IMG/VR virus record: IMGVR_UViG_2778261447_000003
Source of the DNA: a virus
Taxonomy: Duplodnaviria; Heunggongvirae; Uroviricota; Caudoviricetes
Direction: 5' to 3' (one strand)
DNA: 22,063 bases
Position 1 is the stretch's first letter. Each line of letters begins with the position of its first letter. The notes beneath the pieces are model-generated. The model did no database searches, was not told the origin of the DNA, and saw only the letters and a program-made list of their open reading frames with translations. Positions 181-15,627 of the stretch are shown one piece after another. Both the position numbers and the translations under genes were made by a program.

Positions 181-345
181 TTACATGTTTTCGATGATCG
201 CTTCACCAAACTCTGAACATTTCAGCAGCTTAGCGCCTTCCATCAGACGTTCGAAGTCATAAGTTACGGTCTTGGCATTGATTGCGCCTTCCATACCTTT
301 AACAATCAGGTCAGCCGCTTCAGTCCAACCCATATGGCGCAGCAT
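181..345 (-). pseudogene. icd: Isocitrate dehydrogenase 3' fragment (54 codons plus stop), the copy displaced by prophage integration
   Basis: Minus-strand translation gives [54 protein letters not shown], which I recognise as the Icd C-terminus. An in-frame TAA lies immediately upstream (349-351), so only the 3' end is present. Sits next to mcrA, as the icdC fragment does at the e14 end in K-12 (recalled, not searched). Confidence 0.85.
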
Positions 346-577: not shown

Positions 578-1411
578 TTATTTCTGTAATCGGTTTATAT
601 TAACGTAAAGCATCTCGATTAGTTCTTTTGCATTTTTACTATAGTGCAATTCTCTATGGCAATTCGGACAAAGGGCAACACAGTTATCTGTTGTATCAGC
701 ACCACCTGAAGACAGGGGAATTACATGATGCACTTCCAAATATGGGTTTCCATCATTTAAATAAAACGGAGCATTTTTACCACAGTTTTCACATATACCT
801 TTACTTTGCTGTAAAATCCAAGCTTTTACCATCGGGTCTCGGACATAAACTTTTTGTAGTCTTTCTACCTCAACTGGTTTCCTGGAGCCCTCGGGTTGAC
901 TCAACGTTTTCTTAATTAATTTACTAACCCTCATATTCAGAAGCGATTCATCATCTGTAGGCTGTGAAAGCTCTGATAGTTCTCCACGTATTATAGACGC
1001 CCAAAAACTGTCACTATAAATACCTGGAACATTTATCAATATTCGTTTCGTTCTATTGCCGGAAGGAATTTCCTTTCTCCCCGTACGACTAAAATAAGCC
1101 TGATAACCACACATCTTCAAGCGTATATCGCGGGGGCTATTACCAATCAAAGAAAAATATTCACCAGGATGGATTTTTCTTTCATCCAAAGAATGCATAT
1201 GTTTTCTGACTGATGATGACGCCAGATATACTACGACTTGGGATACACCAGAATCAACCAACCGTTCAATGATATAATCAAGAGCGATATTGTAATCTTT
1301 GTTTCTGTCACCCGGCCCCCACGACTCAAGGATTAGACCATAAACACCATCCTCTTCACCTATCGAACACTCAGCTTTCAGTTCAATTCCATTGTTATCA
1401 AAAACATGCAT
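578..1411 (-). CDS. mcrA: McrA, 5-methylcytosine-specific HNH restriction endonuclease (277 aa)
   Basis: Complete ORF with ATG start. C-terminal HNH motif CENCGKNAPF...EVHHVIPLSSGGADTTDNCVALCPNCHRELH. Length and position next to pin at the prophage end match e14 mcrA (recalled). The gene is AT-rich relative to the structural module. Confidence 0.88.
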   Translation of the reverse strand: MHVFDNNGIELKAECSIGEEDGVYGLILESWGPGDRNKDYNIALDYIIERLVDSGVSQVVVYLASSSVRKHMHSLDERKIHPGEYFSLIGNSPRDIRLKMCGYQAYFSRTGRKEIPSGNRTKRILINVPGIYSDSFWASIIRGELSELSQPTDDESLLNMRVSKLIKKTLSQPEGSRKPVEVERLQKVYVRDPMVKAWILQQSKGICENCGKNAPFYLNDGNPYLEVHHVIPLSSGGADTTDNCVALCPNCHRELHYSKNAKELIEMLYVNINRLQK

Positions 1412-1517
1412 AATATTAATCTTTAATCAATTTTTCACGACAATACTACTTTTATTGATAAAATTGCAACAAGTTGCTGTTGTTTTACTTTCTTTTGTAC
1501 ACAAAGTGTCTTTAACT

Positions 1518-2072
1518 TTATTTATCCCCTGCAGGAAACCTCTTATACAAAGTTGACACACCAACATCATAGATAATCGCCACCTTCTGGCGAGGAACTC
1601 CTGATGCAATTAATCGTCCGGCCTGTTCCCATTGTTCTGGTGTAAGTTTGGGACGACGTCCACCAATTCGTCCCTGTGCGCGAGCAGCTTCCAGTCCAGC
1701 TTTTGTTCTTTCAACAATCAGTTCACGCTCCATTTCAGCCAGGGCACCCATCACATGAAAGAAAAAGCGCCCCATTGGGGTACTGGTATCAATTGAATCC
1801 GTCAGACTACGAAAGTTGATGCCTCGTTCGCGCAACTCCTCCACCAGCACGACAAGATGCCGCATACTGCGCCCCAGTCGGTCCAGTTTCCAGACCACCA
1901 GCGTATCACCTGCCGATAATGTCCTGAGCAGTTTTTTCAGTCCCGGCCTTTCGGACTTTGTACCGCTTATCTTGTCTTCAAAAATCAGCTCGCATCCTGC
2001 ACAGTTCAGCGCATTACGTTGTAGATCTGTGTTCTGGTCATTTGTTGACACACGTACATAGCCAATAAGCAT
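1518..2072 (-). CDS. pin: Pin/Gin/Hin-family serine DNA invertase (184 aa)
   Basis: N-terminus MLIGYVRVSTNDQ contains the catalytic serine motif of small serine recombinases; a helix-turn-helix lies at the C-terminus. I place the start at the ATG at 2070-2072, which has an AGGGAG Shine-Dalgarno about 8 nt upstream, not at the track start 2108. Adjacent to inverted crossover sites. Confidence 0.9.
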   Translation of the reverse strand: MLIGYVRVSTNDQNTDLQRNALNCAGCELIFEDKISGTKSERPGLKKLLRTLSAGDTLVVWKLDRLGRSMRHLVVLVEELRERGINFRSLTDSIDTSTPMGRFFFHVMGALAEMERELIVERTKAGLEAARAQGRIGGRRPKLTPEQWEQAGRLIASGVPRQKVAIIYDVGVSTLYKRFPAGDK

Positions 2073-2126
2073 GGTAGATCTCCCTGACAAAAGCAGGAAT
2101 GATGCCATTTGCTCGTTATTTCTGCA

Positions 2127-2152
2127 TTTTCATAAACGTTGGTTTGGGAGAA
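2127..2152. repeat. Invertase crossover site, left (hix/gix/pix-like 26-bp site)
   Basis: ttttcataaacg-tt-ggtttgggagaa. The inner 14 bp (2139-2152) are a perfect inverted repeat of 4012-4025. Resembles the hix/gix 12-2-12 architecture (AAAACC..GGTTT). Confidence 0.75.
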
Positions 2153-2650
2153 GGCTCTGCATTACCTGTTGGGGTTCCTGTTCCGTGGCCTTCAGCCACT
2201 CCGCCAACAGGCTGGCTGAAATGCAACGGAGCAGCTTTTTCTGCTGAAGAATACCCGGAGCTGGCAAAGGCTTACCCGACAAATAAATTGCCTGATTTAC
2301 GTGGTGAGTTTATTCGTGGCTGGGATGACGGACGTGGTATGGATACGGGGAGGGCAATATTATCCGCTCAGGGCGATGCCATACGTAATATCTATGGTGA
2401 GTTCAAGACTGTAAACACCGAAAATTATTCAATATGGGAATCAGTAGGCTCGTTTAAGGGGGCAGTAGTGCCTTTGAACCCCTCAACGAACAATAGTTAT
2501 TTCTCCTTAATCAGAAGTATGGTGACAGAAAGAACAGATGGCGCTGTTTACCCAAAAGTGATTGGCCTTGATGCTTCAAGAATTGTTCCAACTGCAAACG
2601 AAAACCGTCCTCGTAACATTGCCTTTAATTATATCGTGAGGGCTGCCTGA
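2141..2650 (+). CDS. Silent alternative tail-fibre C-terminal cassette (variable receptor-binding part), expressed only after inversion
   Basis: Frame is continuous from the crossover site. Encodes LPVGVPVPWPSATPPTGWLKCNGAAFSAEEYPELAKAYP, the phage tail-collar type motif of Mu/P2-type fibre C-termini. The ATG at 2099 in the ORF track lies outside the segment and is probably not a real start. Confidence 0.65.
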   Translation, partial: GLGEGSALPVGVPVPWPSATPPTGWLKCNGAAFSAEEYPELAKAYPTNKLPDLRGEFIRGWDDGRGMDTGRAILSAQGDAIRNIYGEFKTVNTENYSIWESVGSFKGAVVPLNPSTNNSYFSLIRSMVTERTDGAVYPKVIGLDASRIVPTANENRPRNIAFNYIVRAA

Positions 2651-3252
2651 TGAATAAAGCCGTATTAAATAACGAACTCATTGCCATAAAAGCGGGAGTC
2701 ATTACCATTTATAATTATGATGGTGAAACGCGGGAATATATTTCCACATCAACTGAATATCTTGCGGTTGGCGTCGGTATCCCGGCATGTTCTTGTTTAG
2801 ATGCACCAGTTACACATAAAGCTGGTTATGCAATCTGCCGTTCTGCAGATTTTAACTCATGGGAATATGTGCCAGACCATCGCGGTGAAATCATCTATAG
2901 CACCGAAACAGGAGAATCGAAAGAAATCACAGCTCCGGGTGATTATCCTGAAAATACAACCACTATCGCCCCGTTAACGCCATACGATAAATGGGATGGT
3001 GAGAAATGGGTGACGGATACCGAGGCACAGCATAGCGCCGCAGTAGAAGCGGCAGAAGCACAGCGCCAGTCGCTGATTGATGCTGCAATGGCTTCCATCA
3101 GTCTGATTCAGCTGAAATTACAGGCCGGGCGGAAGCTGACGCAGCCAGAAAACACCCGACTTAACGCTGTGCTGGATTATATTGACGCGGTGACGGCAAC
3201 AGATACCAGCACAGCGCCGGACGTCATCTGGCCTGAACTGCCGGAGGCGTAG
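2650..3252 (+). CDS. Tail fibre assembly protein (Tfa/gpU-like, 200 aa), alternative orientation set
   Basis: Start ATG overlaps the stop of the upstream cassette (TGATG). C-terminal motif DYIDAVTATDTSTAPDVIWPELP is typical of Tfa chaperones. Possibly the tfaE counterpart. Confidence 0.8.
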   Translation: MNKAVLNNELIAIKAGVITIYNYDGETREYISTSTEYLAVGVGIPACSCLDAPVTHKAGYAICRSADFNSWEYVPDHRGEIIYSTETGESKEITAPGDYPENTTTIAPLTPYDKWDGEKWVTDTEAQHSAAVEAAEAQRQSLIDAAMASISLIQLKLQAGRKLTQPENTRLNAVLDYIDAVTATDTSTAPDVIWPELPEA

Positions 3253-3664
3253 GCCATTCAATATCTGGCGCACCGGAAGTATCGACCAGTTCCAGTGCGT
3301 CCAGATAATCCAGCCACAAATTATATTGCGCCAGTTCCTCACCTTTCAGGCGACCAATCGCCGCTTTACCAGGCCATTGCTTACTGTTTATGTATTCGTT
3401 GACCTGATTAATCAATTGCTGCTTTTCCAGTTCGGCTGCGGCAATTTGTTCCTCATGAGTTGGCGGTGGAATATCAATCCATGCAGGCATTCCGTCGATG
3501 ACACCTCTGTATTTTCCTTCTGGTGCTTCCTTCATAAATTCGGCGGCAACAGTGTCGTCAATTTCGATTCCATCACCGGGCCATTCGCCGGATTCCTGAT
3601 AAGCGATTTTAAGCTCCACAGGGAAAAACGCATTTTTATCGGCACTGAAAATATATTTCTGCAT
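3224..3664 (-). CDS. Tail fibre assembly protein (Tfa/gpU-like, 146 aa), currently expressed set
   Basis: Immediately downstream of the tail-fibre gene. C-terminal motif WLDYLDALELVDTSGAPDIEWPTPP. Its 3' end overlaps the convergent tfa gene by 29 nt. Confidence 0.8.
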   Translation of the reverse strand: MQKYIFSADKNAFFPVELKIAYQESGEWPGDGIEIDDTVAAEFMKEAPEGKYRGVIDGMPAWIDIPPPTHEEQIAAAELEKQQLINQVNEYINSKQWPGKAAIGRLKGEELAQYNLWLDYLDALELVDTSGAPDIEWPTPPAVQAR

Positions 3665-3666
3665 TT

Positions 3667-4314
3667 CTACCGTCCTATCGAAATATAACTGAATCTGTAT
3701 TGCTGTGAGATATCACTGGTTGCCACACGCCACGCTGAATTACTGATATGTTCAAAATTTACAGACAAAACCTGCGGGGCAGGATTCGACGGGTCTGACT
3801 GAACGGCATCAGACATAACACTGACTGAAACCATCGGCTGATTAGGGAATGGTATAGGGAAGTGTCCACTGATAAAGCGGGTCGTGTTTCCTGAAAAAGT
3901 GCCAAACTGAACAATATATCCACCTGGTAGCCTGAACCATCCCGAACCAGAAGCGAATGCTCCCATATCCGGTATCTGATTATCTCCTGTGCCCACATTC
4001 CGTTTTGCCGCTTCTCCCAAACCAAGGTTTTCGAGAGCCGTTTTCACCGTGCCATCCGATTTGATATCGCCAAACGGATTCTTGCGGCTTAACAGCAGCG
4101 CACGAAGCGCGGTAAGCAGCTGGTCGTGCCGCGCCTTCTCCAGGCTGGCACCGGATGCCTCCACCACGCTACAAAGCTCTTCCTGCAACATGTCAAAGTA
4201 GTCATCATCCAGATCGGTGGCAGGCGTGCCGGTCTGGGGGTTGCCACGGGTAAAACCGTTCTTACCCGCGCCGAACTTATCCTTCTGCGCGGTTTTCGTG
4301 TCTATGCGATGCAT
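3667..4314 (-). CDS. Tail fibre protein (215 aa): constant N-terminus of about 97 aa fused through the right crossover site to a variable C-terminus
   Basis: ATG at 4312-4314 with GGAG Shine-Dalgarno. The crossover site is read in frame as ENLGLGE. Synteny places it between the baseplate genes and tfa. Possibly the stfP counterpart. Confidence 0.7.
4012..4037. repeat. Invertase crossover site, right (hix/gix/pix-like 26-bp site)
   Basis: ttctcccaaacc-aa-ggttttcgagag; its reverse complement is ctctcgaaaacc-tt-ggtttgggagaa. The inner half is identical to the left site; the outer half is close to the hix consensus. Confidence 0.75.
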
Positions 4315-4317
4315 GGA

Positions 4318-4902
4318 TTACTCCGGATATTTAAAAATTACGTAGGTATGAGACGGACAGAGTTTGTTAAGCACACATTCGACAACGGTGTCGCCCCAGA
4401 TACGCAGTGCGGAATCACAGGGATCGCCACATGTCATCCAGGTGGTGTTTGTGGCGGCTGGCATGTTGACCTGCCAGTAATACCGCCATTCCGGCGCATT
4501 CACCGCGTCAGTACAGGCCGATGAGCAGGTGAACGTGCTTTTGTCGTATCGCGTGATGGTAGCGTCTGGTCTGCCCAGGGCAGCAAGCTGTGCAAGATAA
4601 AAATTCTCGTTGATGCCGCCCGCCAGGTTAACCTTCGCATCCAGCCGTTGCTGACGCTGGCGAAGGGTCTGTGTCCCTGCGGGAATACATTCATCCGGCA
4701 GACCGCACAGACGCTCCCAGCGGTTTATCAGTTCAGTGGTGGTGCGCGGATCCAGCTCCCGCATCAGGGCATCCGCACGCTGATGAACGCGGGTTAATGA
4801 CGGTGCCGCACCGGCAATCGACGGATCGCTGGCTGACCACGCCGGACCGGGGGGCAACAGTGCCGACAACAGACGGATGTAATCATCGTTTGTCACGTCC
4901 AT
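4318..4902 (-). CDS. Mu gp48-like tail/baseplate protein (DUF2313 type, 194 aa)
   Basis: Cys-rich C-terminal region. Position between the baseplate J-like gene and the tail fibre gene. Resembles e14 YmfQ (recalled). Confidence 0.6.
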
Positions 4903-5951
4903 GAAATCGTCCCCAGTACCGCCAGTTCATTTTTTGCAATGGAGATATTGTCTGCCGGTGCAAGCAACTGATGGCTGTATTCCCCGTTCGCACCGGAAAT
5001 CGCCTCACTGATACGCGATACCTTCAGTTCTCCCTGCGGATAACCATCACGCAGCAGGAACGAACGCAACTCCGCGGTGATGGCAGCCCGTATTTCCGGT
5101 GTGTCCGGCGTCACGCGGATATGAAAATCCACCGTATGTGCCACCGGCCTGAACACATACAAATCAGAGCCTGCCACCGGGGCCAGTGGCCCGATATGTT
5201 GTCTTGCCGCCGTTTCCGTTGATTCTTCCGGAATGGGATTAATCAGGTCACTGCTGGCAATCATCACACCGACAGTTCCCGTTCCCATCCAGTGACGGTA
5301 TGTCCATGCGCGGGTAATGCCGGGCACTTCTTTAGCCCAGACGACATAGTCCCCGTCAGCCCCGCCCTGCGGCGTCCAGTAATACCGCTCAATGACGCGG
5401 GCGCGCCACGTTTCCAGCTCTTCAGTATCAAATCCGCCTGTCAGGGTGTCAGCCACACCGGAAGACGGCAGACCATTCACCGGCGTGACCAGGATTAATG
5501 CCGTACCGTCGTCAGCGTTACCGACCGCGCCTGCACTTGAGCAGGCGATCGGCACGCGCAGGACACCACCGGAGCTGGTTGCATCGGCAGTTGCCGTGTA
5601 CTGAACCAGGTCATCGCGCTGAATAACACTCCCGGCGGTCACCTTCAGGCCATCGCTGACACCTTCCCAGCGCATATACCCGCTGGCAGCCGTGGCCCCC
5701 TTGCGCGGACACCGTTTCATCGCAGCATGTCGCGCCAGCCAGGACTCATCGCACAGGTCAGGCAGCATGTTCATTGCCAGATAATCGATGTACCCGTAAA
5801 CCGTATGCAGCGCCGCCGCATACACCTTTGCCCGCACGTCTTCATCCATGCGCCGGAGCGTGTCGCTGACGTCCAGCCTGGCGAATAAATCGTTACGGAG
5901 CATACTGATATTTTCTGCCAGCGTCGGGCGCTGAAATTCACTGTCCGCCAT
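4893..5951 (-). CDS. Baseplate J-like protein (Mu gp47 / P2 gpJ family, 352 aa)
   Basis: Size and position in the baseplate cluster; overlapping start and stop with neighbouring genes indicates an operon. Confidence 0.7.
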
Positions 5952-6366
5952 GCGTTATCGCACTCCACAGATCATCAAAAGAAATCATTACCGGTCCGTC
6001 ACGACGCCAGAGGGTGATACTGTTACCCAGTTCATTAATCCCGGTGCGGCGGATATCCAGATCAATACGGGACACCACGCCGTCATCAATCATCCATTGC
6101 AGGCATTCGCGGATATACCCCCTTACCGTCAGCACCAGCTGATTGGTCAGTTTGCTGCGCTGAAGCAGCCACAGTCGGGAGCCGTAACGGTCATTCTGTA
6201 CCGCAGGCCAGGTATCCCCCCACCATCCCATCGGGACGTCGGCGTTGTCATCAGGCTCCGCCCGCCGCCAGGTAAACAGGGAAATCACCACGGCGCGGGT
6301 CAGCGGATCCAGCGGTGCGCTGGCGCAGGTGCGTTTACCGTTCACCGTCAGCCACAGTTCCATCAT
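5938..6366 (-). CDS. Mu gp46-like baseplate protein (142 aa)
   Basis: Small protein between the spike and J-like genes; Mu-like gene order. Confidence 0.6.
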   Translation of the reverse strand: MMELWLTVNGKRTCASAPLDPLTRAVVISLFTWRRAEPDDNADVPMGWWGDTWPAVQNDRYGSRLWLLQRSKLTNQLVLTVRGYIRECLQWMIDDGVVSRIDLDIRRTGINELGNSITLWRRDGPVMISFDDLWSAITHGGQ

Positions 6367-6911
6367 GCCTCCATCGCTTTATCAGGTTTGTCGGTGTTAC
6401 TGCCCTGACCGTTCTCTCTGTGACGATGCCCGTTATAGGCAAGCCGCATCGCTGACATGGTGGTGCCGCTGGAGTCGCACAGGTCTTTCACCTGTCCTGT
6501 CACTTCCAGGTCCATTTCAAAACGTGCTTTAGGTGAATTGCGAAACGTGATCGTTTTACCTGCACCGTCCACCACGATCCCCTCCCGGGTCAGCGTCACG
6601 GACTGCCCCTGATCGTCATAGACAGCCACCTCACCAGTCTGCAGCCCTTTCAGGCGGTAGCGCCGGTCCGACACCGTAACAACCACCGCATGAGAACGGT
6701 CACCATCCGGAAACAACACCACCGCTTCCGCACCGCTGTTTGCTCTTGCGGTAAAACCGTAGGGTTCAAGATGTTCAACCCCGGCTTTGGGTTCACCGGC
6801 AATCAGGGACACATCCACGGTCTGACATTTCGTGGCGGCACTGATGCTTTTCACCACCGCCCGCCCAATCAGGCCGAGGAGTTGTCGCTGTATGGTTTCA
6901 ATCGCCTTCAT
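6363..6911 (-). CDS. Baseplate assembly/spike protein (Mu gp45 / P2 gpV-like, 182 aa)
   Basis: Synteny and size. Start overlaps the stop of the upstream gene. Confidence 0.65.
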   Translation of the reverse strand: MKAIETIQRQLLGLIGRAVVKSISAATKCQTVDVSLIAGEPKAGVEHLEPYGFTARANSGAEAVVLFPDGDRSHAVVVTVSDRRYRLKGLQTGEVAVYDDQGQSVTLTREGIVVDGAGKTITFRNSPKARFEMDLEVTGQVKDLCDSSGTTMSAMRLAYNGHRHRENGQGSNTDKPDKAMEA

Positions 6912-7990
6912 CAGAACGGGTCCTCCTGTACTCTGGCTTTTTTCTTTTTCCGCGCGCCGGGGGCTTCGGGTTCAGGCAGATAAGCATCAGGTGGGCCGAC
7001 ACGGATTTCCGTCAGGGTGCCATTCTGGTCCTGAGTAAACGTGACTTCCGAGACAAGCAGTTCGGTATTGTCGAAACCACAGACCGGATCGAAGACAATC
7101 ACCCGCTGGTTGGGCTGCCACAGCGTACCGTTACCCTGTCGCCAGCCCTGCACCACATAGGTGGTTTCATCCGTCCGCGCCGCCCGTTGTCGGGCTTCAA
7201 AGTCAGCACGCGCAATACAGCCTGCCCCCGTAGCCTGCCCTGTCTGCCTGATATACATCGGACGGTAACGGGCAATAAATGCATCCTCTGTGCGGGCCCG
7301 CAGCGCGGTGGTGGTGGCCTCACCGAAATCATCGTCGTTTCCGGCACGCTGCCCCGCCACCTGGTAAACTGAAAACCGCTCCCGGATACTCTTCTCCGTA
7401 TCACAGGAAAGGATGTTTTCCCCAAGTACCAGCGCGGTATGTGCCTGCGTTGAGCCAATACCACCAATCACCAGCCTGCCGTGCGGGTCGTCATAAGCCA
7501 GCGCCTGCTGCTGACCGAGTATTTTGTTGATCACCTCGATCACCGTTTCACCGTGATCAGGCTGGACATCCGGAATAACACCCGACGGCGCATCGCTGTT
7601 CACCACCTCAATGCCGAAAGGCGCAGCAAGCGCCTGCGCAATCTGTACCAGCGATCGTCCGTTAAACTGTGTCGGTTCGGCTGCACAGTCAATCAGGTCA
7701 GCAGTCAGACTACGTCCGGCAATACCGGTGCTGACCGAACGGGCATCGTAACGAACGGGGGTCGCCTCCACCCAGCCGGTGATCACCAGCTCATCACCAA
7801 TCAGCACTTCCACTTTTGAACCATTTTTAATGCGCGGCTGAAGCGTGGTGATACCCTCATCACCCGGCCACTGGCGGGTGATCTCCACGCTGAAATCCCG
7901 CGCCAGCCGTTCAATACCGGCACCGATGCGCACCGATGTCCAGCCATTCCACTCCCGGCCATTTACCCGTAGCGTGACATTGTCGTTCAT
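6911..7990 (-). CDS. Baseplate hub / late control D-like tail protein (Mu gp44 / P2 gpD family, 359 aa)
   Basis: Size, Lys-rich C-terminus (ARKKKKARVQ), and position after the DNA circulation protein gene. Confidence 0.7.
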   Translation of the reverse strand: MNDNVTLRVNGREWNGWTSVRIGAGIERLARDFSVEITRQWPGDEGITTLQPRIKNGSKVEVLIGDELVITGWVEATPVRYDARSVSTGIAGRSLTADLIDCAAEPTQFNGRSLVQIAQALAAPFGIEVVNSDAPSGVIPDVQPDHGETVIEVINKILGQQQALAYDDPHGRLVIGGIGSTQAHTALVLGENILSCDTEKSIRERFSVYQVAGQRAGNDDDFGEATTTALRARTEDAFIARYRPMYIRQTGQATGAGCIARADFEARQRAARTDETTYVVQGWRQGNGTLWQPNQRVIVFDPVCGFDNTELLVSEVTFTQDQNGTLTEIRVGPPDAYLPEPEAPGARKKKKARVQEDPF

Positions 7991-9315
7991 TGCACTGGCA
8001 CCTTCAGAGGGATCACCGGCACAAAGCCGGGATGCGTAATGGCATTACGCCGGATAATGTCCGCGTCACGCGCCGCGTTATCAAACCAGGTCGCCACCAG
8101 CACCAGCGCGGGTAAAACCTCATCCGGTGTGCGCTGAATGATCCGTGCAGACTGTTCAAGGCGCGTGTTGATATCCGCATTCAGATCTGCTTTCACCCGG
8201 CGCAGCGCCAGAAACAGCGCATCGCTGGTTATACGGGACAACTCCTTATCAATTGCCGTATTCAGTGTGTCGCGAATGTCAGTCAGTTCTTCCCACGTCG
8301 GCAGGTCAACCGTGTTTTTCACCGCCGGTGCATTGTTCAGTGCCGGATGCGTGACGGAAGGCCAGCCAGTGCTCTGCGCGGGTGTTGTTGCCTGCCCCAC
8401 TGCGGAATTCTGCATCACCGCGGAAGTTGTTGGCGCAGGCAATCGGGTGACGGCATACGCCGCTTCGCTGATTGCGGTCGTACGAAGGGTGCTGGCAACC
8501 ACGTTACGCTGCTGCGTCGCCGTGGCGGTGGTTTTACTGTCCGTTTTCCAGACGCCGCGCGGTTGCAGATCGCTGCCGAGGCTGACACCGGAAAGCGTTT
8601 TGATCATGGTGACCAGGTCGCTGGCGTTACCATAAAGGCGTTTCCCGGTACGCCACATTTTCTGCACCTGCTCAACGAAATTTTTGCCTGACGATGGCGG
8701 CGGCAGAAGTACCGAGATATCCCCCTGCAACAGCCTGGCGGCATCCGATACGGCAGAATCCACCACTTTCATCGCATCAGAAACATACCCAAGCATTGTG
8801 CTGGCATTACCGACGACGTCGTTCTGCACAAAATCTGCCACGCCATCGATACTGAAACCACTGAAGCTGTCACTGATGCAGTCATCCAGTGCAGAACAGG
8901 ATGACATCAGCGTCTGCGCCGTCGCCGCACCTGAAGTGGGGTAAGAGAGTTCTCCCGCTTCGACAAACTTCAGGTCAAAGCGGACAATACGCCCTTCACT
9001 CTTCGATGTGCTGACCCGAACTTCCCCGTCAACACAGACTTTCAGCTCACCGTAAGTCGGATGGACAAGCGTGCCGGGACCGGGTTTATTCAGCGCGTCA
9101 ATCAGGCGATCGCGCTGGTCAAAGCAGTCATCTCCCACCACATAAGCTGTGATGGACGGGCGGAAAGTGATTTTCCCCAGGTCTTCGGTATAGGGTTTGT
9201 CGCGGTTCGGGTATTCGTGCGTTTCCACACGACGACCGGTTCCCGCACTTTCTTCTTCAACCTTAAACGGCACACCGCGAAATGACGCGTCCTGAAGTCT
9301 GTCTTTCCACGTCAT
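7987..9315 (-). CDS. Mu gp43-like DNA circulation protein (about 442 aa)
   Basis: N-terminus MTWKDRLQDASFRGVPFKV matches the DNA-circulation N-terminal domain as I recall it. I prefer the ATG at 9313-9315 (GGAG Shine-Dalgarno 8 nt upstream) to the track start 9357, which lacks one. Confidence 0.7.
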   Translation of the reverse strand: MTWKDRLQDASFRGVPFKVEEESAGTGRRVETHEYPNRDKPYTEDLGKITFRPSITAYVVGDDCFDQRDRLIDALNKPGPGTLVHPTYGELKVCVDGEVRVSTSKSEGRIVRFDLKFVEAGELSYPTSGAATAQTLMSSCSALDDCISDSFSGFSIDGVADFVQNDVVGNASTMLGYVSDAMKVVDSAVSDAARLLQGDISVLLPPPSSGKNFVEQVQKMWRTGKRLYGNASDLVTMIKTLSGVSLGSDLQPRGVWKTDSKTTATATQQRNVVASTLRTTAISEAAYAVTRLPAPTTSAVMQNSAVGQATTPAQSTGWPSVTHPALNNAPAVKNTVDLPTWEELTDIRDTLNTAIDKELSRITSDALFLALRRVKADLNADINTRLEQSARIIQRTPDEVLPALVLVATWFDNAARDADIIRRNAITHPGFVPVIPLKVPVQ

Positions 9316-9330
9316 ATAAACTCCGTACAT

Positions 9331-9356
9331 AAAAAATCCCACCGGAGTGGGACTCA
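9331..9356 (-). terminator. Terminator-like hairpin with U6 tract between the tape measure and DNA-circulation genes
   Basis: Minus strand reads tcccac-tccg-gtggga followed by TTTTTT: a 6-bp stem with a 4-nt loop. Weak stem, so possibly an attenuator rather than a full terminator. Confidence 0.3.
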
Positions 9357-9375
9357 TTAACAGATTAATTTTTCA

Positions 9376-11211
9376 TTACCTGCCAAAGCGCGTATAGCCA
9401 ACATCATGGCTGACATCAAAACCGCTGGATCGCGTTTCCATAACCCGCATACCCGGAGGCGAATTCATAAAAGAGACCTTGATCTCACCATCAACTTTTG
9501 GCGCAGAAGCTTTGTTAATCATGAAGGGATTCGGGCCTGTGGCACCGGAGGCGTTGTTTGACTGAGCCGGATCTACCGCCGGATAAGGTGTGTATCCCCG
9601 CGCCGGTATTCCCGTCCCATAAGCATCATAAGCACCCGCGCCCCACTGCGCAGAGTTAATGGCATCGACCGTGTCACCGGAACTGTCGGTAAACCACTCA
9701 ATAATTGGCTTCAGCTTGTCCCACATATCCTGAAACCACTTAACAACCGGCCCCCAGTTATTGATCACCATCCCCAGCGGCGACCAGGCAAAAACTTTCT
9801 TAAGGAGTTCCCAGCCAGCCTCAAAATAAGGACCAATGGTTTCCCAGAGTTTCTTAAAATAAGGTCCGACAACATCCCAGTTAGTGATAATTAATCCCGC
9901 AGCCAGGGCTATCGCCGTCGCAATCATGCCAATCGGCGTCATCGACATGATCCTGCTGACAATACTGATGGCACCGCCAACGCCCATCAATCCCAGTTTC
10001 AGAATCGCAAGACCGGCAGCAAGCCCGACGACGCCGCGAATAACCCGGGGATTTTCATCCGCAAACTTCGTGAATTTTTCCCCCAACTCCCCCAGCCATT
10101 GCGTGATATTTTTAGCGTCACCAGAAAATGCGCCGCCAATAGCTGCAAGACCGTTAGTTGCGGTCCCCGTCATTGCCTCCCACAGGTTGGACAGCGTACC
10201 AAGCTGGGCCTGAACACGTTTATTCAGGCTGGCCTGTTTATTCATCTTCTGCTGGATCTGATCGTAGCCATCCTTTCCTTTATCGATCAGAGCATTGACC
10301 ACCTGAAGGGTTTCGGCATCATCACCAAATATTGCCTTAAGTACACCGGTTCGCTTAACGTCGGTCAGTTTTCGCAGCTTTGCCAGTTGCCTGAACATGT
10401 TATCAAGACCGCCAAAACTCCCTTTGCCATCAGTAAAATCGAGCTGTACCCCGAGTTTCTGGCGGGCCATGATTTTATTGACGTCCCTGATTTTCTTAAC
10501 GCTTAATCCGGACTGGATAACTTTTCGCAGGGCATTACCTGCCGACTCCCCGTTCATCCCCATCTGATCCATCATGACACTGATGGGGGCAAGACTCTGT
10601 GCAGCCTGAAGACCGTCCTTATTCACCATCTTCAGAACAGAGCTGGTTTTAGTGAAGAATGACAGCATGTTGGTGTCGTCAACGCCCAGATAAAACGCCT
10701 TCTGAATTGTGTCGAACAGCCCCATCATGTCTTCTGAGGCCGTTCCGGTAGCATCCTGCATCTTTGCGGCAAACTCGGCAGCCGCTTCCGGTGTTTTTTT
10801 CAGTTGTACCGCAAGATAAGCTGTCGCTTTACCCACACCACCCAGAATGTTTTCTGCCGGGATCCCCTGACGCACCAGCATCTGCATCATGTTCTGGAAA
10901 TCAGCCGTTGTACCGGGTAGCTGGTTACCCAGGCCAATAGCCAGTTTATTGATGTCCTGAAAGCTCTTTCCAACCTCGCCGTTCGCATCCATCATGGCGA
11001 CTTTCAGCCCGGTAGCGGCGTTTTCCTGATCGGCATAAGATTTCAGGGAAAGCGTCAGCCCCGCTGCCAGTCCGCCACCAAGCGCCAGCCCACCCTGTGA
11101 CGCCTCTTCCGCCTGGCGTTTAAATCCCCGGATTTTCTTTTGCATTTTCGACAGCGCGGGAGAAAGCCTGTCGACACCGGTGATCAACGCCTTAAGCTCA
11201 AATTCAGCCAT
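9376..11211 (-). CDS. Tail tape measure protein (611 aa)
   Basis: Large protein rich in Ala, Gly and Met with a hydrophobic Gly-rich central segment, directly downstream of the chaperone frameshift pair. ATG has an AGGAGA Shine-Dalgarno. Confidence 0.85.
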   Translation of the reverse strand: MAEFELKALITGVDRLSPALSKMQKKIRGFKRQAEEASQGGLALGGGLAAGLTLSLKSYADQENAATGLKVAMMDANGEVGKSFQDINKLAIGLGNQLPGTTADFQNMMQMLVRQGIPAENILGGVGKATAYLAVQLKKTPEAAAEFAAKMQDATGTASEDMMGLFDTIQKAFYLGVDDTNMLSFFTKTSSVLKMVNKDGLQAAQSLAPISVMMDQMGMNGESAGNALRKVIQSGLSVKKIRDVNKIMARQKLGVQLDFTDGKGSFGGLDNMFRQLAKLRKLTDVKRTGVLKAIFGDDAETLQVVNALIDKGKDGYDQIQQKMNKQASLNKRVQAQLGTLSNLWEAMTGTATNGLAAIGGAFSGDAKNITQWLGELGEKFTKFADENPRVIRGVVGLAAGLAILKLGLMGVGGAISIVSRIMSMTPIGMIATAIALAAGLIITNWDVVGPYFKKLWETIGPYFEAGWELLKKVFAWSPLGMVINNWGPVVKWFQDMWDKLKPIIEWFTDSSGDTVDAINSAQWGAGAYDAYGTGIPARGYTPYPAVDPAQSNNASGATGPNPFMINKASAPKVDGEIKVSFMNSPPGMRVMETRSSGFDVSHDVGYTRFGR

Positions 11212-11352
11212 GTGTGCGTTTCTCCTGCTCTATCCTGTTTGCCTGACTGACCAGCAAGGGAATTTCACTGATCGGCATATTCAGCAATTCGAAGGGATTA
11301 ATGCGCCAGTAGCTGGCGCAGTCAAAGAAGCGATCAGTGAGGTATTCAGCCG

Positions 11353-11622
11353 TCAGGCCTGGAGGAAAAAACCAGCCACAAGCCACGCCGCTGCATTCAG
11401 GTCTGCCGGAGACATCTGGTCGACAGAGCTTTGCGGCACTTTCGCCAGCCGCACAATGTATTTCGACACCACATGCGCCAGAAGTCTGACGGACTCATCC
11501 TGATTCATCTGGTAGGGATACCCCAGCTCGCGAACATCCTTCCCGGTGGGTTCATCAAACTCCAGTACGGAGAGTGTCTCACCATGAGCGATAATCGGTT
11601 TCTTTAACTCAAGCTCTTTCAT
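11353..11622 (-). CDS. Tail assembly chaperone (Mu gp41 / lambda G-like, 89 aa); zero-frame product
   Basis: Lies between the tube and tape measure genes. Contains a slippery heptamer 4 codons before its stop, with a -1 frame ORF continuing to the tape measure start. Confidence 0.65.
   Translation of the reverse strand: MKELELKKPIIAHGETLSVLEFDEPTGKDVRELGYPYQMNQDESVRLLAHVVSKYIVRLAKVPQSSVDQMSPADLNAAAWLVAGFFLQA
11365..11371 (-). other. Candidate -1 programmed ribosomal frameshift site (slippery heptamer T_TTT_TTC)
   Basis: Minus-strand codons GGT TTT TTC form the X_XXY_YYZ motif T TTT TTC in the zero frame. The -1 frame is open from here to the TGA at 11204-11206, which overlaps the tape measure ATG at 11209-11211; the predicted fusion is about 139 aa. 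Confidence 0.6.
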
Positions 11623-11978
11623 TACTGGTAATCCCCTTCTTCACCGTGGAACTCAAGATCAACCGTCCCTTCTTCGGCATTATGGTTCGCTTCTCCGTGC
11701 AGCCAGGCGGACGACAATACATAGACCTGACCGTTCGCCAGCTCGGCAGTGATGGTCATCTCATCAGACGAGGTGATTTTGTTCACCGGAAAATTCTTCG
11801 GCACCTTGAAGGTCCCTTTGACATAAGGCGCACGGTGAGTTTCCTTGCGGTCCACTGAACCGTCCAGGCCGATGATGTCATCATTGACCGTCCTGTTCAT
11901 GGGCACCTCAATGCCGCCGGTCAGCGATAGCTGCTGACCGTCAATTTTGAAATAACAGGTTCCCCCGATACGGGCCAT
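11622..11978 (-). CDS. Tail tube protein (118 aa)
   Basis: Immediately downstream of the sheath gene (start overlaps the sheath stop, TAATG); size fits a Mu-type tube protein. Confidence 0.6.
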   Translation of the reverse strand: MARIGGTCYFKIDGQQLSLTGGIEVPMNRTVNDDIIGLDGSVDRKETHRAPYVKGTFKVPKNFPVNKITSSDEMTITAELANGQVYVLSSAWLHGEANHNAEEGTVDLEFHGEEGDYQ

Positions 11979-13474
11979 TATGCAGACTCCTCTGAATACT
12001 GAAGACGGAACTGGTTAACCACGGCAAAAACACGCAACTGGTTAACATAGTCAGGCGGGAACAGCGTGTTCAGGCGGTTCGGATCGCTGGCATCACGCTC
12101 CACAACCAGGTACTGCTTAAACAGTTCGTAGTTTTCCACGATCCCCGCACGCTCAAGCTGACGGTAGGTTGCCAGCAGTTCCCCTTTGATTACCGCCGGG
12201 GTGACAATCGCCTGACCGGGACCAAAGCGGGTACCGTCGCTGGCAAGCTTGTGACGCCCGTACTTACTGGTAATGACGGATTTCAGTTTGCGCAGTACAT
12301 ACGCGCTGGTATGCAGCGTCTCGCTGTCGAGGTAGCTGTTATCCGCAACACCGTAAGCATTTTTCCTGTACGTGGTGACATCACGCTGAATGCGCAGCAC
12401 CCCGCTTTCGACATACGCCGTTGCCACGCCATGAGACAGCAGGGTCTGCTGCTCGGTCATCGTGAACCGTTTCCCCTTCGGCGCAGGCAACATACCTACC
12501 AGCTCACCGGTCTGCGTGGGACGTGCCGGATCGTTGCGGATAAACACCGCTGCGCGGGCGGTACGGCTTGCCGCCAGCTCGTCGGCAGGCGTCTGGGTCT
12601 CTTTTTCGTACCCCGCCAGGGTGATGTGCTGCTGGTTAAACTGGTCACCTGCGTTCACCAGTTCTGACAGTGTGCCGGTCTTTGCCGTATACACATGACC
12701 ATACAGCTGACGCGCATAGCTCCAGCGACCGCTGGTATCGTTCATCTCGGTCACCAGCGTGTTAACGGAGGCCGTGTCGTTGAACGGCAGACCGATATAA
12801 TCAAACGGCTCATCCGCCATTGCAGCCACCGCGCCGGTGAGAACCGGAGCGCCCGTTCCGGCGGTCCCCGTCGCCACGGCAATCTGTACGCCCGCTGGCA
12901 GTACTTCGCCCCCACCGAAGCCGTAGTAATTGAGGCTGACAGGAATTTCATTCCCGCAAAGCCCCTTATGACGCGCGGTCAGCGTGACAACACCAGCCGA
13001 AGATGAAGCTGTAAACGGCAGAGTCGGAACGGCATTGATGGCATCTTTGATACTGCTGGCAATCGTCGTGACGTTATCGCCGTTGGTCACCGGAGCCTGC
13101 ACGCGGGTACGTCCCACATAGACATTCACCGTGCCGCTTTCGGTTGCTTCCCCGGTCACCGTCAGCGTAACCGTTGCCGCCGCGCCTGTGGCTTCCGGAA
13201 CGGCAATCACATACAGCTCACCAAACGGGTCGGTCTGGCGATAAGCCTCGACCATACGCGCCAGCTGACTTCCCGCACCACAAATCTGGCGTGCATAGTC
13301 TGCCGACGGCATCAGCACCAGACTGTTGGCAACAATCTCTGCACCGTTATTGGCATGACCAATCAGCAGCGATGCTCCGCTGTCCTGTGCAGTATTCGCC
13401 GCCTGGTTATCCATTTCCGCATAAAACAGCGGAACCAGCGTATTCGACGGAATGGTGTTAAAGCTTATCGTCAT
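11978..13474 (-). CDS. Contractile tail sheath protein (Mu gpL-like, 498 aa)
   Basis: N-terminus MTISFNTIPSNTLVPLFYAEMDN resembles myovirus sheath N-termini; size about 500 aa; followed by tube and chaperone genes. Confidence 0.85.
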   Translation of the reverse strand: MTISFNTIPSNTLVPLFYAEMDNQAANTAQDSGASLLIGHANNGAEIVANSLVLMPSADYARQICGAGSQLARMVEAYRQTDPFGELYVIAVPEATGAAATVTLTVTGEATESGTVNVYVGRTRVQAPVTNGDNVTTIASSIKDAINAVPTLPFTASSSAGVVTLTARHKGLCGNEIPVSLNYYGFGGGEVLPAGVQIAVATGTAGTGAPVLTGAVAAMADEPFDYIGLPFNDTASVNTLVTEMNDTSGRWSYARQLYGHVYTAKTGTLSELVNAGDQFNQQHITLAGYEKETQTPADELAASRTARAAVFIRNDPARPTQTGELVGMLPAPKGKRFTMTEQQTLLSHGVATAYVESGVLRIQRDVTTYRKNAYGVADNSYLDSETLHTSAYVLRKLKSVITSKYGRHKLASDGTRFGPGQAIVTPAVIKGELLATYRQLERAGIVENYELFKQYLVVERDASDPNRLNTLFPPDYVNQLRVFAVVNQFRLQYSEESA

Positions 13475-13628
13475 CGGTGTTCACCTTTTTATTCACGCGC
13501 CGGATATCACCCGCTGCTTCACGGCGCAGCCAGTAGTTGTTCTCGTCAACATTTCGCCCTTCGGTGGGCAAAAGGTCACCGCGGGCAGGGTCAGGCACTG
13601 ACCGCCCTTTAACAGGTTTCACAAACAT
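13458..13628 (-). CDS. Small conserved phage protein (56 aa), not in the supplied ORF track
   Basis: ATG at 13626-13628; translation MFVKPVKGRSVPDPARGDLLPTEGRNVDENNYWLRREAAGDIRRVNKKVNTDDDKL. Stop overlaps the sheath start region. Resembles the small ORF found upstream of sheath genes in Mu-like tails. Weak ribosome binding site. Confidence 0.4.
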   Translation of the reverse strand: MFVKPVKGRSVPDPARGDLLPTEGRNVDENNYWLRREAAGDIRRVNKKVNTDDDKL

Positions 13629-13636
13629 GAAGATTC

Positions 13637-14197
13637 TCAGGAAGGAAGGGTTATTTCGGTGTGATGTTCGATATCGCCGTCAGGCCCGTTACCGGGATCG
13701 AGATAATCAACATCAATCGCCAGCGTTCGCAGTTCATCCAGACTGTTCAGGTCATCCTGCTGGCGGGTATCGTCTTCGGTCAGCTCGCTGATGACCGAAA
13801 AATCGAACTGATAAATCAGCTCATGACGATTCAGATCCAGTAGCGTGCCGCCGTCATAGGTAATCGGGTTACCGCACGCTTCCGGGTTCCAGCCCAGCAG
13901 GGCCTTAAAGAGCATCTGCCGGACATCGTCCACCACATCATACGAGGTAAACTGACCGCGCTCATCACGCCCGTTACTCAGTATGACAACCACGGAGAAA
14001 CCCTCTTTCAGCTCCTGCCAGTAGTCGGTCTGGCTTTTGTTTTCTCCCGGAGAATCATCACCCGGTACAACATATGCCGCCGGGAGTTTCAGCTTTCCGA
14101 CCTCCGGCAGATTTTTGAACTGGGCCGCGCCTGCAACCCGGTTTTCAAAATACGGACAGCGGGCACGCAGTGCAGCAATAACAGGCGTCAGTTTCAT
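13637..14197 (-). CDS. Mu gp37-like neck/tail completion protein (186 aa)
   Basis: Start overlaps the upstream stop (ATGA); position between head-tail joining genes and sheath. Confidence 0.55.
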   Translation of the reverse strand: MKLTPVIAALRARCPYFENRVAGAAQFKNLPEVGKLKLPAAYVVPGDDSPGENKSQTDYWQELKEGFSVVVILSNGRDERGQFTSYDVVDDVRQMLFKALLGWNPEACGNPITYDGGTLLDLNRHELIYQFDFSVISELTEDDTRQQDDLNSLDELRTLAIDVDYLDPGNGPDGDIEHHTEITLPS

Positions 14198-14700
14198 CTG
14201 TGTCGTCGCTCCGGCTTCAGTGATTTACGCAATTCCCGCGCCAGAAAATAGCGTGTCCAGCTGCGGTTCTTTTCAAGCGTTTCCACCATGAAGTTATTAC
14301 GTGGAGCCAGTCGCCAGCCGCTGCCACCGGATGCACCACGATGATGGCTGCGACGACGCTTTGCCCCTCGCCTCACGCCATAGAACAAAAAAGCCGGATA
14401 AAAATCACCGGTGATACGGCGGTTTCCCTCTCCATTACGCTGGTTAGGGGCTATACGTGCCATAAAACCAGGACGATGTTTACTGGCTCTGGGTACCATG
14501 TAACCAATCGAACGAGCCAGGCGTCCGGTCTGATAACCGGGGTTTTCACCCGGTGCCGACCGCGCACGGCGCATCACCAGCCGACGGGCATCACGCATAT
14601 GACGCTGACCAATCGTGACAAACGCCCGCCGGACACGGGCGCGGTTAAAGCGCATCTCCGCGGGCTGCTGAAAATCAACGTGCAAAAAGGAAGTCGCCAT
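14194..14700 (-). CDS. HK97 gp10-like virion morphogenesis/neck protein (168 aa)
   Basis: Arg-rich basic protein; ATG with GGAGG Shine-Dalgarno; position after the head-tail adaptor. Confidence 0.55.
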   Translation of the reverse strand: MATSFLHVDFQQPAEMRFNRARVRRAFVTIGQRHMRDARRLVMRRARSAPGENPGYQTGRLARSIGYMVPRASKHRPGFMARIAPNQRNGEGNRRITGDFYPAFLFYGVRRGAKRRRSHHRGASGGSGWRLAPRNNFMVETLEKNRSWTRYFLARELRKSLKPERRHR

Positions 14701-15085
14701 TGTTGCCTCCGTGACTCTGCGTAAATTCGCCCAGCTCCGTACACTCCAGCAGCAGAAAGCGCCGCGCCCCGTTCAGATCACGCTGACGTTTCACCCGGTA
14801 CACACTGTCACCGCAGACCACCTCATAATCAGCGGTGATCCCCCGGCGGTAGCGAATGGTGATGTAATGGGTGATGGCGTCTCCGGTCTGCGCGGTTTCC
14901 TGCCAGGTAGTGGCACTGGTCTGGACAACCTTCGCCCATGCCCGGAACGCAACCGGATATTGAGGCTCCACGCCAAAGTTATCCGCGGGCATATCCACCC
15001 GCTGGCGGATCAGGACGCGTTTATTCAGTTCGCCGGGGTCCGGCAGAATGTAGGTTGCGCTGGTCTGCGCCTGACGAATTTTCAT
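14675..15085 (-). CDS. Head-tail adaptor / head closure protein (136 aa)
   Basis: Start overlaps the stop of the connector gene (ATGA); size and position typical of head-tail joining proteins. Confidence 0.6.
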   Translation of the reverse strand: MKIRQAQTSATYILPDPGELNKRVLIRQRVDMPADNFGVEPQYPVAFRAWAKVVQTSATTWQETAQTGDAITHYITIRYRRGITADYEVVCGDSVYRVKRQRDLNGARRFLLLECTELGEFTQSHGGNNGDFLFAR

Positions 15086-15405
15086 TGCGGAAAGTACCTG
15101 TACGGGCCGACAAGCCAGCTAAAACTCTGCGGCATGTCGAGTTTCTCCACTTCCGTAACCGAAGAGCGGTTTTCGTAAAAATGGCTGATAAGCATCAGCA
15201 TCCCCAGACGAATATCATCCGGCAGGTGCAGCCCGTCCGGATCGCTGTCCGGAATGGTTTCATCCGGTGCATAGAGCTTCCGGTTCAGATACGTTTCCGT
15301 CCGCTTTTGCGCCGCACAGGCCAGCAGTTGCAGATGGCGGTCATCAGCATCGAAATCCTCATCCAGCCGGAGTTGGGCTTTAATCTCTTCCATTGTCAGA
15401 AGCAT
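15082..15405 (-). CDS. gp6-like head-tail connector protein (107 aa)
   Basis: Small acidic protein between the capsid region and the adaptor; typical location. Confidence 0.6.
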   Translation of the reverse strand: MLLTMEEIKAQLRLDEDFDADDRHLQLLACAAQKRTETYLNRKLYAPDETIPDSDPDGLHLPDDIRLGMLMLISHFYENRSSVTEVEKLDMPQSFSWLVGPYRYFPQ

Positions 15406-15407
15406 AC

Positions 15408-15608
15408 TCAGCCCTCTTTACTGGTCGTGGCTTTTTTCTCTTTTGCCGCTTTACTGCTTTTTGCACTGGTTCCGCGCTCTGCTAACCCGGCCTGAAGTGC
15501 AATCTCCTGCACCCGGGCAGGAAGCGCCCCGTCGTCATACTCACCGGCCCGAATGACCTCAACACGCATACCGTCCGGTGACCATTTCAGATCTTGTTTC
15601 AGGATCAT
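15408..15608 (-). CDS. Hypothetical small protein with Lys/Ser-rich C-terminal tail (66 aa)
   Basis: ORF between the major capsid gene and the connector gene; C-terminus SAKSSKAAKEKKATTSKEG. Function unknown. Confidence 0.4.
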   Translation of the reverse strand: MILKQDLKWSPDGMRVEVIRAGEYDDGALPARVQEIALQAGLAERGTSAKSSKAAKEKKATTSKEG

Positions 15609-15627
15609 GATTCTTCACCCGTCAGAA

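Follow-up and report, generated by a model that had tools for sequence, protein, structure and literature searches.

The Pin/P system is the third member of a classical set of DNA inversion systems, beside Mu gin/G and P1 cin/C. Publications on Pin/P go back to 1985 (Plasterk & van de Putte, cited in PMC4272514). Its Escherichia coli K-12 form, carried by prophage e14 and made up of pinE, stfP/ycfK, tfaP, tfaE and stfE, has a published '1797-bp' P segment, and inversion of that segment was shown by qPCR with PinE and PinQ (PMC12529663) as well as by whole-genome sequencing and PCR (PMC4272514). The crossover sites were published as pixL, TTCTCCCAAACC AA GGTTTTCGAGAG, and pixR, TTCTCCCAAACC AA CGTTTATGAAAA (Table 3 of PMC3241671). 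In the Salmonella Hin recombinase, the residues that contact Fis and the enhancer are Q151, R154 and L155, together with the basic helix-B positions 47, 48 and 51; the first three are specific to Fis-dependent invertases (PMC3798978).

In the window (the whole stretch of 22,063 nt analysed here), the region 2127–4037 is very probably the Pin/P site-specific inversion system of the e14 prophage family. An earlier note on this DNA had described a tail-fibre switch analogous to Mu gin/G and P1 cin/C. The tail-fibre inversion switch is real and was correctly read, and the layout is indeed shared with those two phages, but the resemblance goes beyond analogy: this is e14 pin/P itself. The system is thus an already described one, its sites being letter-for-letter as published and both of its arrangements being annotated in public genomes.

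The genes follow the order of e14 one for one: icdC–mcrA–pin–[collar tip–tfaE–tfaP-like–gp53-like tip]–constant fibre N-terminus–ymfQ. The displaced icd 3′ end that marks the e14 attachment junction, icdC, is an ORF at 181–345 (minus strand), and an isocitrate dehydrogenase fragment or icdC is annotated at the same position in strain H3 and in K-12. The type IV restriction endonuclease gene mcrA (578–1411, minus strand; Pfam HNH), the e14 cargo gene adjoining pin, is likewise annotated at the same position in both. Directly upstream of the fibre gene, and transcribed in the same direction, lies the Mu gp48-like baseplate gene ymfQ (4318–4902, minus strand; Pfam Phage_Mu_Gp48, 1.4e-26), which occupies this position in K-12 e14 too.

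With K-12 e14 this copy shares the exact 26-mers of pixL and pixR, the gene order and the chromosomal position, with the icdC and mcrA flank; identity to K-12 is 98% for Pin, about 98% for the constant fibre N-terminus and 91% for TfaE. The two elements differ in both tips and in the N-terminal part of TfaP, which are divergent alleles here, in the length of the segment between the repeats (1857 bp here vs the published 1797 bp) and in the perfect repeat (15 bp here vs 16 bp in K-12). Moreover, whereas K-12 e14 is a 15-kb defective remnant, the late-gene module of the window has complete reading frames, 97–98% identical to those of the functional Shigella phages SfI, SfII, SfIV and SfV. Judging by these alignments, the system is a member of the e14 Pin/P family that is distinct from the K-12 element itself and has allelic tip cassettes. 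Its carrier is a relative of E. coli prophage e14, apparently complete, with different receptor-binding tips.

Crossover sites and the Pin invertase

The two inverted 26-bp sites, initially described as hix/gix-like, were read directly at 2127–2152 and 4012–4037. On the given strand, the former reads TTTTCATAAACG TT GGTTTGGGAGAA and the latter TTCTCCCAAACC AA GGTTTTCGAGAG. Alignment to hix, gix and pix sites, chosen beforehand as the comparison able to overturn the reading, gave 26/26 identity to both pixL and pixR. The invertase-proximal site, pixR (2127–2152, minus strand; core dinucleotide 2139–2140), matches the published sequence in its reverse complement, and the distal site, pixL (4012–4037, plus strand; core dinucleotide 4024–4025), which lies within the fibre gene, matches it as written. 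Both are also identical to the sites of E. coli K-12 MG1655. They lie in inverted orientation, each with two imperfect 12-bp half-sites around a 2-bp core, and the AA/TT core is identical in both.

A perfect inverted core shared by the two sites is present, but it had been given as 14 bp and the perfect repeat is actually 15 bp (2139–2153 / 4011–4025). In the extended repeat (2134–2153 / 4011–4030), 19 of 20 bases pair. The inverted block common to both sites, TTGGTTTGGGAGAA, has just two occurrences in the 22-kb window, one per strand, and shuffled sequence yielded a mean of 0.19 matches to it even with two mismatches permitted. We found no further pix-like sites in the window with up to three mismatches allowed; additional sites would have pointed to a multi-inversion (Min-type) system.

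Both sites are read in frame within fibre ORFs, as had been claimed: pixL as ...ALENLGLGE... in the ORF at 3667–4314 (minus strand) and pixR as ...INVGLGE... in the ORF at 2099–2650 (plus strand). The exact pixR 26-mer is also found in K-12, strain H3 and FAM21845, and the exact pixL 26-mer in K-12, H3, FAM21845, phage vB_EcoM-689R6 and SfII.

The invertase gene pin (1518–2072, minus strand) encodes a 184-aa serine DNA invertase with Pfam Resolvase (1.5e-51) and HTH_7 (1.4e-13) domains. Its true start, opening MLIGYVRVS, is at 2072 rather than at the ATG upstream (2108). The gene is intact, full-length and uninterrupted, Ser9 is conserved, and the product is 98% identical to K-12 PinE, 83% to P1 Cin and 79% to Mu Gin. 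Pin displays the pattern of small serine recombinases (about 180–190 aa, a resolvase domain, a serine near position 9–10 and a C-terminal HTH) and, by its sequence, is one of the Hin/Gin/Cin/Pin (Din) group. In the alignment, Pin, PinE, Gin and Cin all have Q150, R153 and L154. By alignment position we equated them with Hin Q151, R154 and L155, the Pin numbering being one lower than that of Hin; the basic residues K46, K47 and R50 of Pin were equated in the same way with the Hin helix-B positions 47, 48 and 51.

The P1 record annotates a recombinational enhancer at nt 19–90 of cin. The corresponding nt 19–90 of pin (1983–2054, minus strand) align to it without gaps at 76% identity, and this homology marks the stretch as a putative enhancer. 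Two Fis-core-like G-N13-C 15-mers are found in it (2037–2051 and 1988–2002), with a measured spacing of 49 bp; in Hin, the corresponding spacing is 48 bp. The first of these 15-mers is absent from cin, and the stretch showed no excess of synonymous-site conservation, with third-codon identity of 42–46% inside vs 43–45% outside. A Fis enhancer in the 5′ end of pin is suggested by positional homology only, and inversion may require both Fis and this enhancer. The interval between pin and pixR yielded no sigma-70-like promoter for pin. A scan of positions 1400–4500 for promoters and terminators likewise returned no convincing promoter for pin or for the pixR-side ORF, its 8 hits being barely above the expectation from shuffles (4.5 ± 2.1).

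The invertible segment and its fibre cassettes

The invertible P segment spans 2140–4024 and measures about 1885 bp from core to core, or 1857 bp between the repeat arms. Outside it lies the fibre's constant N-terminal part, some 100 aa long (4026–4314, minus strand), which is nearly identical to residues 1–101 of K-12 StfP and has a weak match to the N-terminal portion of Mu tail fibre S (5yvq, E 0.026). The tip currently assembled is a variable gp53-like C-terminus (3667–4023, minus strand; Pfam Gp53-like_C, 9.4e-09), and its cassette includes a tfaP-like assembly chaperone gene (3224–3664, minus strand; Pfam Caudo_TAP, 4.6e-34). ORFs and Pfam agree with the first description of the present fibre as the constant N-terminus plus one tip, with its own tfa at 3224–3664. 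The gp53-like tip diverges from K-12 StfP directly after ...LGLGE and is weakly similar beyond that point; the tfaP-like product is 56% identical to K-12 TfaP, and its conserved part is C-terminal.

The other cassette runs on the plus strand and comprises the StfE-like collar cassette (2099–2650; Pfam Collar, 8e-16) and its assembly chaperone gene tfaE (2650–3252; Pfam Caudo_TAP, 4.9e-32). The StfE-like product shares 58% identity with K-12 StfE and diverges in its distal part, the tip departing from the K-12 allele ~90 aa into the cassette. The collar C-terminus (2141–2650) had been called silent, and it is indeed unjoined to the fibre N-terminus in the present orientation; it is not a bare fragment, however, as an ORF with an 18-aa leader opens at ATG 2099 and crosses pixR. 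The domain types guessed from the letters were all borne out by Pfam (Collar, two Caudo_TAP, Gp53-like_C, and Resolvase with HTH_7). In PDB sequence searches, the collar cassette matched fibre proteins, T4 gp37 and gp12 among them, including a 'short tail fiber' (9cuy, 5e-26) and the T4 gp37 tip (2xgf, 2e-17), and the gp53-like tip gave marginal matches (E about 0.015). These searches assigned a receptor to neither tip.

When the segment was inverted in silico at the central dinucleotide, the same N-terminus was joined in frame to the collar tip with its own tfa, as predicted, giving a 266-aa fibre ORF. In E. coli FAM21845, both exact pix sites flank an annotated 801-nt CDS of 266 codons plus stop. 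Of 5426 complete genomes, 514 have the constant|collar junction and 19 have the constant|gp53-like one. Single-piece alignments across both junctions follow the native order (hits H1 and H2) or the inverted order (hits H27 and H28). The alignments, the junction counts and the FAM21845 CDS show the segment in both orientations, in each case in genomes other than the source strain, and this particular copy would probably flip as well.

In the mechanism that we propose, Pin dimers would bind pixR (2127–2152) and pixL (4012–4037) and cleave them with a 2-bp stagger at their central AA/TT dinucleotides, which are identical (2139–2140 and 4024–4025), and the ensuing strand exchange would flip the ~1.9-kb segment. 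Because pixL lies inside the fibre gene, at codons ...N-L-G-L-G-E..., the late operon, on the minus strand through ymfQ, would always yield the same ~100-aa fibre N-terminus. This constant part would carry either of two tips, and each tip would be co-transcribed with the Tfa chaperone that matches it. The present orientation would give a 215-aa fibre with the gp53-like tip and the chaperone encoded at 3224–3664, and the inverted one a 266-aa fibre with the tail-collar tip and TfaE (2650–3252).

Comparison with Mu, P1 and Salmonella

The layout found here, with an outer constant N-terminus, two inner tips each with a Tfa and in-frame fusion, is that of Mu G and P1 C. Mu Gin is a homologous invertase whose 26-bp sites have the same half-site consensus, and the G segment also combines an outer constant N-terminus with two convergent 'tip + chaperone' cassettes and an invertase gene just past the far site. 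The core dinucleotide, however, is GA in gix and AA in pix. The Mu G segment is also larger, at ~3 kb with fibres of ~500 aa (S/U vs S′/U′) against 1.9 kb with fibres of 215 and 266 aa here, and the Mu tip domains are unrelated to those of this locus.

P1 Cin/C likewise has a homologous invertase, together with the AA core, and its annotated enhancer falls within the first 90 nt of cin, in a stretch that aligns without gaps to pin. It differs in that the cin end next to cixL is the 3′ one, whereas pin has its 5′ end towards pixR; the C segment measures 4.2 kb, and the tips are different. With Salmonella Hin/H the likeness extends to the recombinase family, to 26-bp sites built alike around an AA core and to the conserved Fis-contact residues. 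Hin flips a promoter controlling flagellin, whereas the DNA flipped here is coding sequence fused in frame, and hin lies inside the H segment, unlike pin, which lies outside the segment.

Alternative readings and possible roles

The inverted repeat might be a chance match or a plain coding motif (GLGE) of two fibre genes, with no role in recombination. The SfII fibre gene carries the exact pixL 26-mer, with neither an exact pixR nor an annotated invertase in the surrounding 5.2 kb, so the 26-mer can persist as plain coding sequence. In the window, however, both 26-mers match experimentally defined Pin sites at every base, are inverted with identical cores and adjoin an intact pin, and hundreds of genomes contain the recombinant junctions that they predict. 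The pix identity over 26/26 positions and these junctions rule out a chance inverted repeat, and we consider the probability of this reading to be vanishingly small. It is also very unlikely that the switch is a frozen relic, in which pin and the sites look intact but the segment inverts no longer and the silent cassette is carried along. The module has decayed in relatives, with pin, tfaE and tfaP frameshifted in H3 and pin truncated in FAM21845, and the decay of pin in these two implies that such switches are often frozen; the failure to detect a promoter for pin points in the same direction. Against this, no interruption is seen here in pin, the two sites, the two tips or the two chaperone genes, all of which are full-length, and inversion is measurable in the K-12 copy, whose sites are the same and whose enzyme is 98% identical. 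Other Pin-family invertases of the same cell, such as PinQ, can moreover act in trans.

By homology, an active switch would probably serve host range, with two tips that may recognise different receptors. Its benefit to the lysogen could also be anti-phage defence, instead of or beside the host range of the prophage, which we regard as possible but on the whole unlikely. In K-12, inversion of the P segment by PinQ/PinE creates the chimeric StfE2, which reportedly blocks T2 adsorption and leaves the cells T2-resistant, although the published mechanism rests partly on docking models (PMC12529663). The leader ORF of K-12 is present here, and inversion would turn the ORF that runs from ATG 2099 across pixR into a 132-aa chimera joining the 18-aa StfE leader to the gp53-like tip, in parallel with K-12 StfE2. 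In FAM21845, which has the inverted arrangement, a 399-nt gene for a 'gp53-like domain-containing protein' of 132 aa is annotated beside the invertase remnant. On the other side, the gp53-like tip is another allele than K-12 StfP, so a T2-specific effect cannot be assumed, and the scan detected no promoter for the pixR-side ORF. The late-gene module, with its complete reading frames, makes a fibre role the simpler reading than defence. A dual job appears decidedly unlikely: two previously uncharacterised tips would alternate on virions, while an orientation-dependent pixR-side protein of 132 aa or 183 aa would mask a surface receptor against superinfecting phages. If true, the masking protein would be an allelic variant of the K-12 StfE2 defence with another phage specificity.

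As a discovery the fibre switch matters little, and its practical value is modest. Whereas K-12 e14 is defective, the prophage that carries this copy has complete-looking late genes, 97–98% identical to those of inducible Shigella phages, and the copy could be used to test Pin inversion against virion host range, and chimeric-tip defence for other tip alleles. For annotation, the fibre gene should be flagged as depending on orientation, and base-exact positions can be given for pixL and pixR. In assembly, the 1.9-kb segment may be collapsed or mis-oriented by assemblers.

Gene content and crossover sites

The switch at 2127–4037 is the already known e14 pin/P system, here with allelic tips and in a more complete prophage. 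Pfam searches identified the invertase gene pin (Resolvase and HTH_7 domains, 1518–2072, − strand), a phage tail Collar domain ORF (2099–2650, +), two tail-fibre assembly chaperones of the Caudo_TAP family (2650–3252, + and 3224–3664, −), the fibre ORF with Gp53-like_C at its C-terminus (3667–4314, −), a Mu gp48-like gene (4318–4902, −) and an HNH endonuclease (578–1411, −), while an ORF at 181–345 encodes the C-terminal end of isocitrate dehydrogenase. In the annotation of E. coli K-12 MG1655, the right end of e14 has this order gene for gene (ymfQ, ycfK/stfP, tfaP, tfaE, stfE, pinE, mcrA and icdC), and the complete genome nearest to the window over the switch region, that of E. coli H3, bears gene names identical to those of K-12 e14. 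The two chaperone genes converge, and their 3′ ends share 29 bp (3224–3252), as is also the case in K-12 e14; almost the same DNA, read on opposite strands, encodes the conserved C-terminal peptide of each (…APD[IV]…WP…).

Read directly, the two crossover sites are TTTTCATAAACG-TT-GGTTTGGGAGAA at 2127–2152 (pixR, invertase-proximal) and TTCTCCCAAACC-AA-GGTTTTCGAGAG at 4012–4037 (pixL, distal). The published pixL is TTCTCCCAAACC AA GGTTTTCGAGAG and the published pixR is TTCTCCCAAACC AA CGTTTATGAAAA (PMC3241671, Table 3); the former equals 4012–4037 and the latter the reverse complement of 2127–2152, each at 26 of 26 positions, so the refuting condition of the earlier note, sites that do not align to hix/gix/pix sites, does not hold. 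Given this match, the crossover is placed at the central dinucleotides, 2139–2140 and 4024–4025. Both exact 26-mers also occur at the K-12 locus. The sites share, in inverted orientation, the 14-mer TTGGTTTGGGAGAA, present in exactly two copies in the 22-kb window, one per strand, against 0.19 matches in shuffled sequence even with two mismatches permitted; the proposed perfect 14-bp inverted core is present, although the perfect repeat is 15 bp long. A repeat finder ranked this pair first among the inverted repeats of the region (19 of 20 bases complementary, arms 1857 nt apart), and a chance repeat was excluded as its explanation. No third pix-like site was found in the window at up to three mismatches. 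As had also been proposed, both sites are read in frame within fibre ORFs, as …ALENLGLGE… in 3667–4314 (−) and …INVGLGE… in 2099–2650 (+).

The Pin recombinase and a candidate enhancer

Pin has 184 aa, starts at 2072 and shares 98% identity with K-12 PinE, 83% with P1 Cin and 79% with Mu Gin; a 196-aa ORF from 2108 was rejected as an ORF-caller artefact. When aligned with PinE, Gin and Cin, Ser9 is conserved, and Q150, R153 and L154 are invariant in all four proteins. Since Pin numbering runs one below that of Hin, the latter residues are equated by alignment position with Hin Q151, R154 and L155, whose conservation has been reported only in Fis/enhancer-dependent invertases (PMC3798978). Pin K46, K47 and R50 (Hin 47, 48 and 51) retain the basic character of helix B.

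The P1 record annotates the Cin inversion enhancer at nt 19–90 of cin, to which pin aligns without gaps, the homologous segment being 1983–2054. Two 15-mers of the form G-N13-C lie within it, GTGTCAACAAATGAC at 2037–2051 and GTGCAGGATGCGAGC at 1988–2002. By this homology, a Fis enhancer in the 5′ part of pin is plausible; we go no further because synonymous conservation is flat (42–46% inside the enhancer-homologous stretch versus 43–45% outside, with no excess inside), the first 15-mer is absent from cin, and the measured centre-to-centre spacing of the two is 49 bp.

Inversion and its role

Standard Din-family inversion is the best-supported mechanism for the switch. On supercoiled DNA, and presumably with Fis on the enhancer, Pin dimers at pixL and pixR would synapse, cut the AA/TT core, rotate and religate; inversion would swap the tip-plus-chaperone cassette attached to the constant fibre N-terminus (4026–4314), itself transcribed from the late operon. 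In-silico inversion of 2139–4025 regenerated both sites and joined the constant N-terminus in frame to the collar cassette, as the earlier note had predicted, giving a 266-aa protein ending in …NYIVRAA. The displaced gp53-like tip (3667–4023) falls behind an 18-aa leader ORF starting at 2099. Only 26 bp separate the ATG of this leader from the start codon of pin, which is read divergently. The leader reads across pixR into either facing cassette; its product has 183 aa in the present orientation and would have 132 aa in the inverted one.

Both arrangements of the segment exist in nature. The window order aligned end to end in a single piece in strains H3 and 20AR0354, and the in-silico inverted order aligned as one piece over both junctions in GF66.2 (96.9%) and FAM21845 (98.8%). 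E. coli FAM21845 carries both pix 26-mers exactly, and its annotation includes a 'phage tail protein' of 801 nt, equal to 266 codons and a stop, and, on the invertase side, a 399-nt (132-aa) 'gp53-like' ORF. Using junction-specific 501-bp queries against 5426 complete genomes, we detected the junction of the constant part with the gp53-like tip in 19 and that with the collar tip in 514. For the K-12 copy, sequencing and PCR have shown both orientations to coexist in clonal cultures (PMC4272514), and the inversion brought about by PinE or, in trans, by PinQ has been quantified with qPCR (PMC12529663).

The main rival reading concerns the purpose of the switch, not its mechanism: inversion would serve to make an StfE2-like chimeric protein from the pixR-side ORF. 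Work published in 2025 reported that, in K-12, inversion creates from this ORF a chimeric StfE2 that blocks T2 adsorption (PMC12529663). The K-12 stfE/StfE2 ORF is paralleled here by the leader ORF from 2099, and this shared architecture favours such a role; however, the tip allele differs from that of K-12, and the pixR-side ORF is without a detectable promoter. It is also possible that the segment is a frozen relic, as the decay in the relatives H3 and FAM21845 would suggest, but all components are intact in the window.

The switch module is decaying in these two genomes, the closest to this region: H3 (locus L001, 3119–5919) has frameshifts in pinE, tfaE and the second tfa and has lost most of the prophage by deletion, and in FAM21845 (locus L006, 1500–1700) the invertase is truncated and the segment fixed in the inverted orientation. 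Shigella phage SfII has an exact 26-bp pixL inside its fibre gene (locus L007, 955–980), with no exact pixR and no annotated invertase in the 5.2 kb around that gene, so relatives that lack a local switch retain the site simply as coding sequence (…LGLGE…); it could be a target of invertases in trans or a cassette-exchange breakpoint. Homology of SfII to the window stops ~50 bp beyond pixL. In the partial genome of phage vB_EcoM-689R6 (locus L003, 1–2400), mcrA comes after a 96.7% identical invertase, and a short pixL-containing fibre gene directly adjoins mcrA, the exact pixR and the cassette pair both being absent from the 6.6 kb examined. Such an arrangement points to a deletion between the two sites or to an assembly that was collapsed or permuted over the invertible segment.

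Comparison with K-12 e14 and the rest of the prophage

The earlier note described the switch as analogous to Mu gin/G and P1 cin/C; the switch exists and the reading of it was correct, yet rather than an analogue it is the e14 pin/P system itself, a classical one with published pix sites. The constant fibre part is ~98% and TfaE 91% identical to K-12, whereas the gp53-like tip departs from K-12 immediately past LGLGE, the collar cassette departs ~90 aa in and rejoins over the final 15 aa, and the TfaP-like chaperone has its C-terminal half alone in common. Mosaicism is usual in tail fibres, and the differing tips and chaperone are allelic receptor-binding cassettes.

K-12 e14 is a 15-kb remnant, whereas the prophage in the window, of the same e14 family, is fuller. 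Its late-gene module (4318–22063) contains full-length baseplate, tape-measure, sheath, capsid, protease, portal and terminase ORFs, and its baseplate and contractile tail are Mu-like. Outside the switch, the window is collinear, at 97–98% identity, with the inducible, serotype-converting Shigella phages SfII, SfI, SfIV and SfV; a prophage of E. coli 20AR0354 is likewise collinear, at 97.8%. At least 80% of the whole window is present in ~590 of the 5426 genomes. Positions 1–77 are one IS1 end (77/77 against IS1A of K-12 MG1655) that adjoins sequence just outside the icdC remnant, indicating that the source strain carries an IS1 insertion beside the prophage junction. Matches to most related genomes start only at 78–80.
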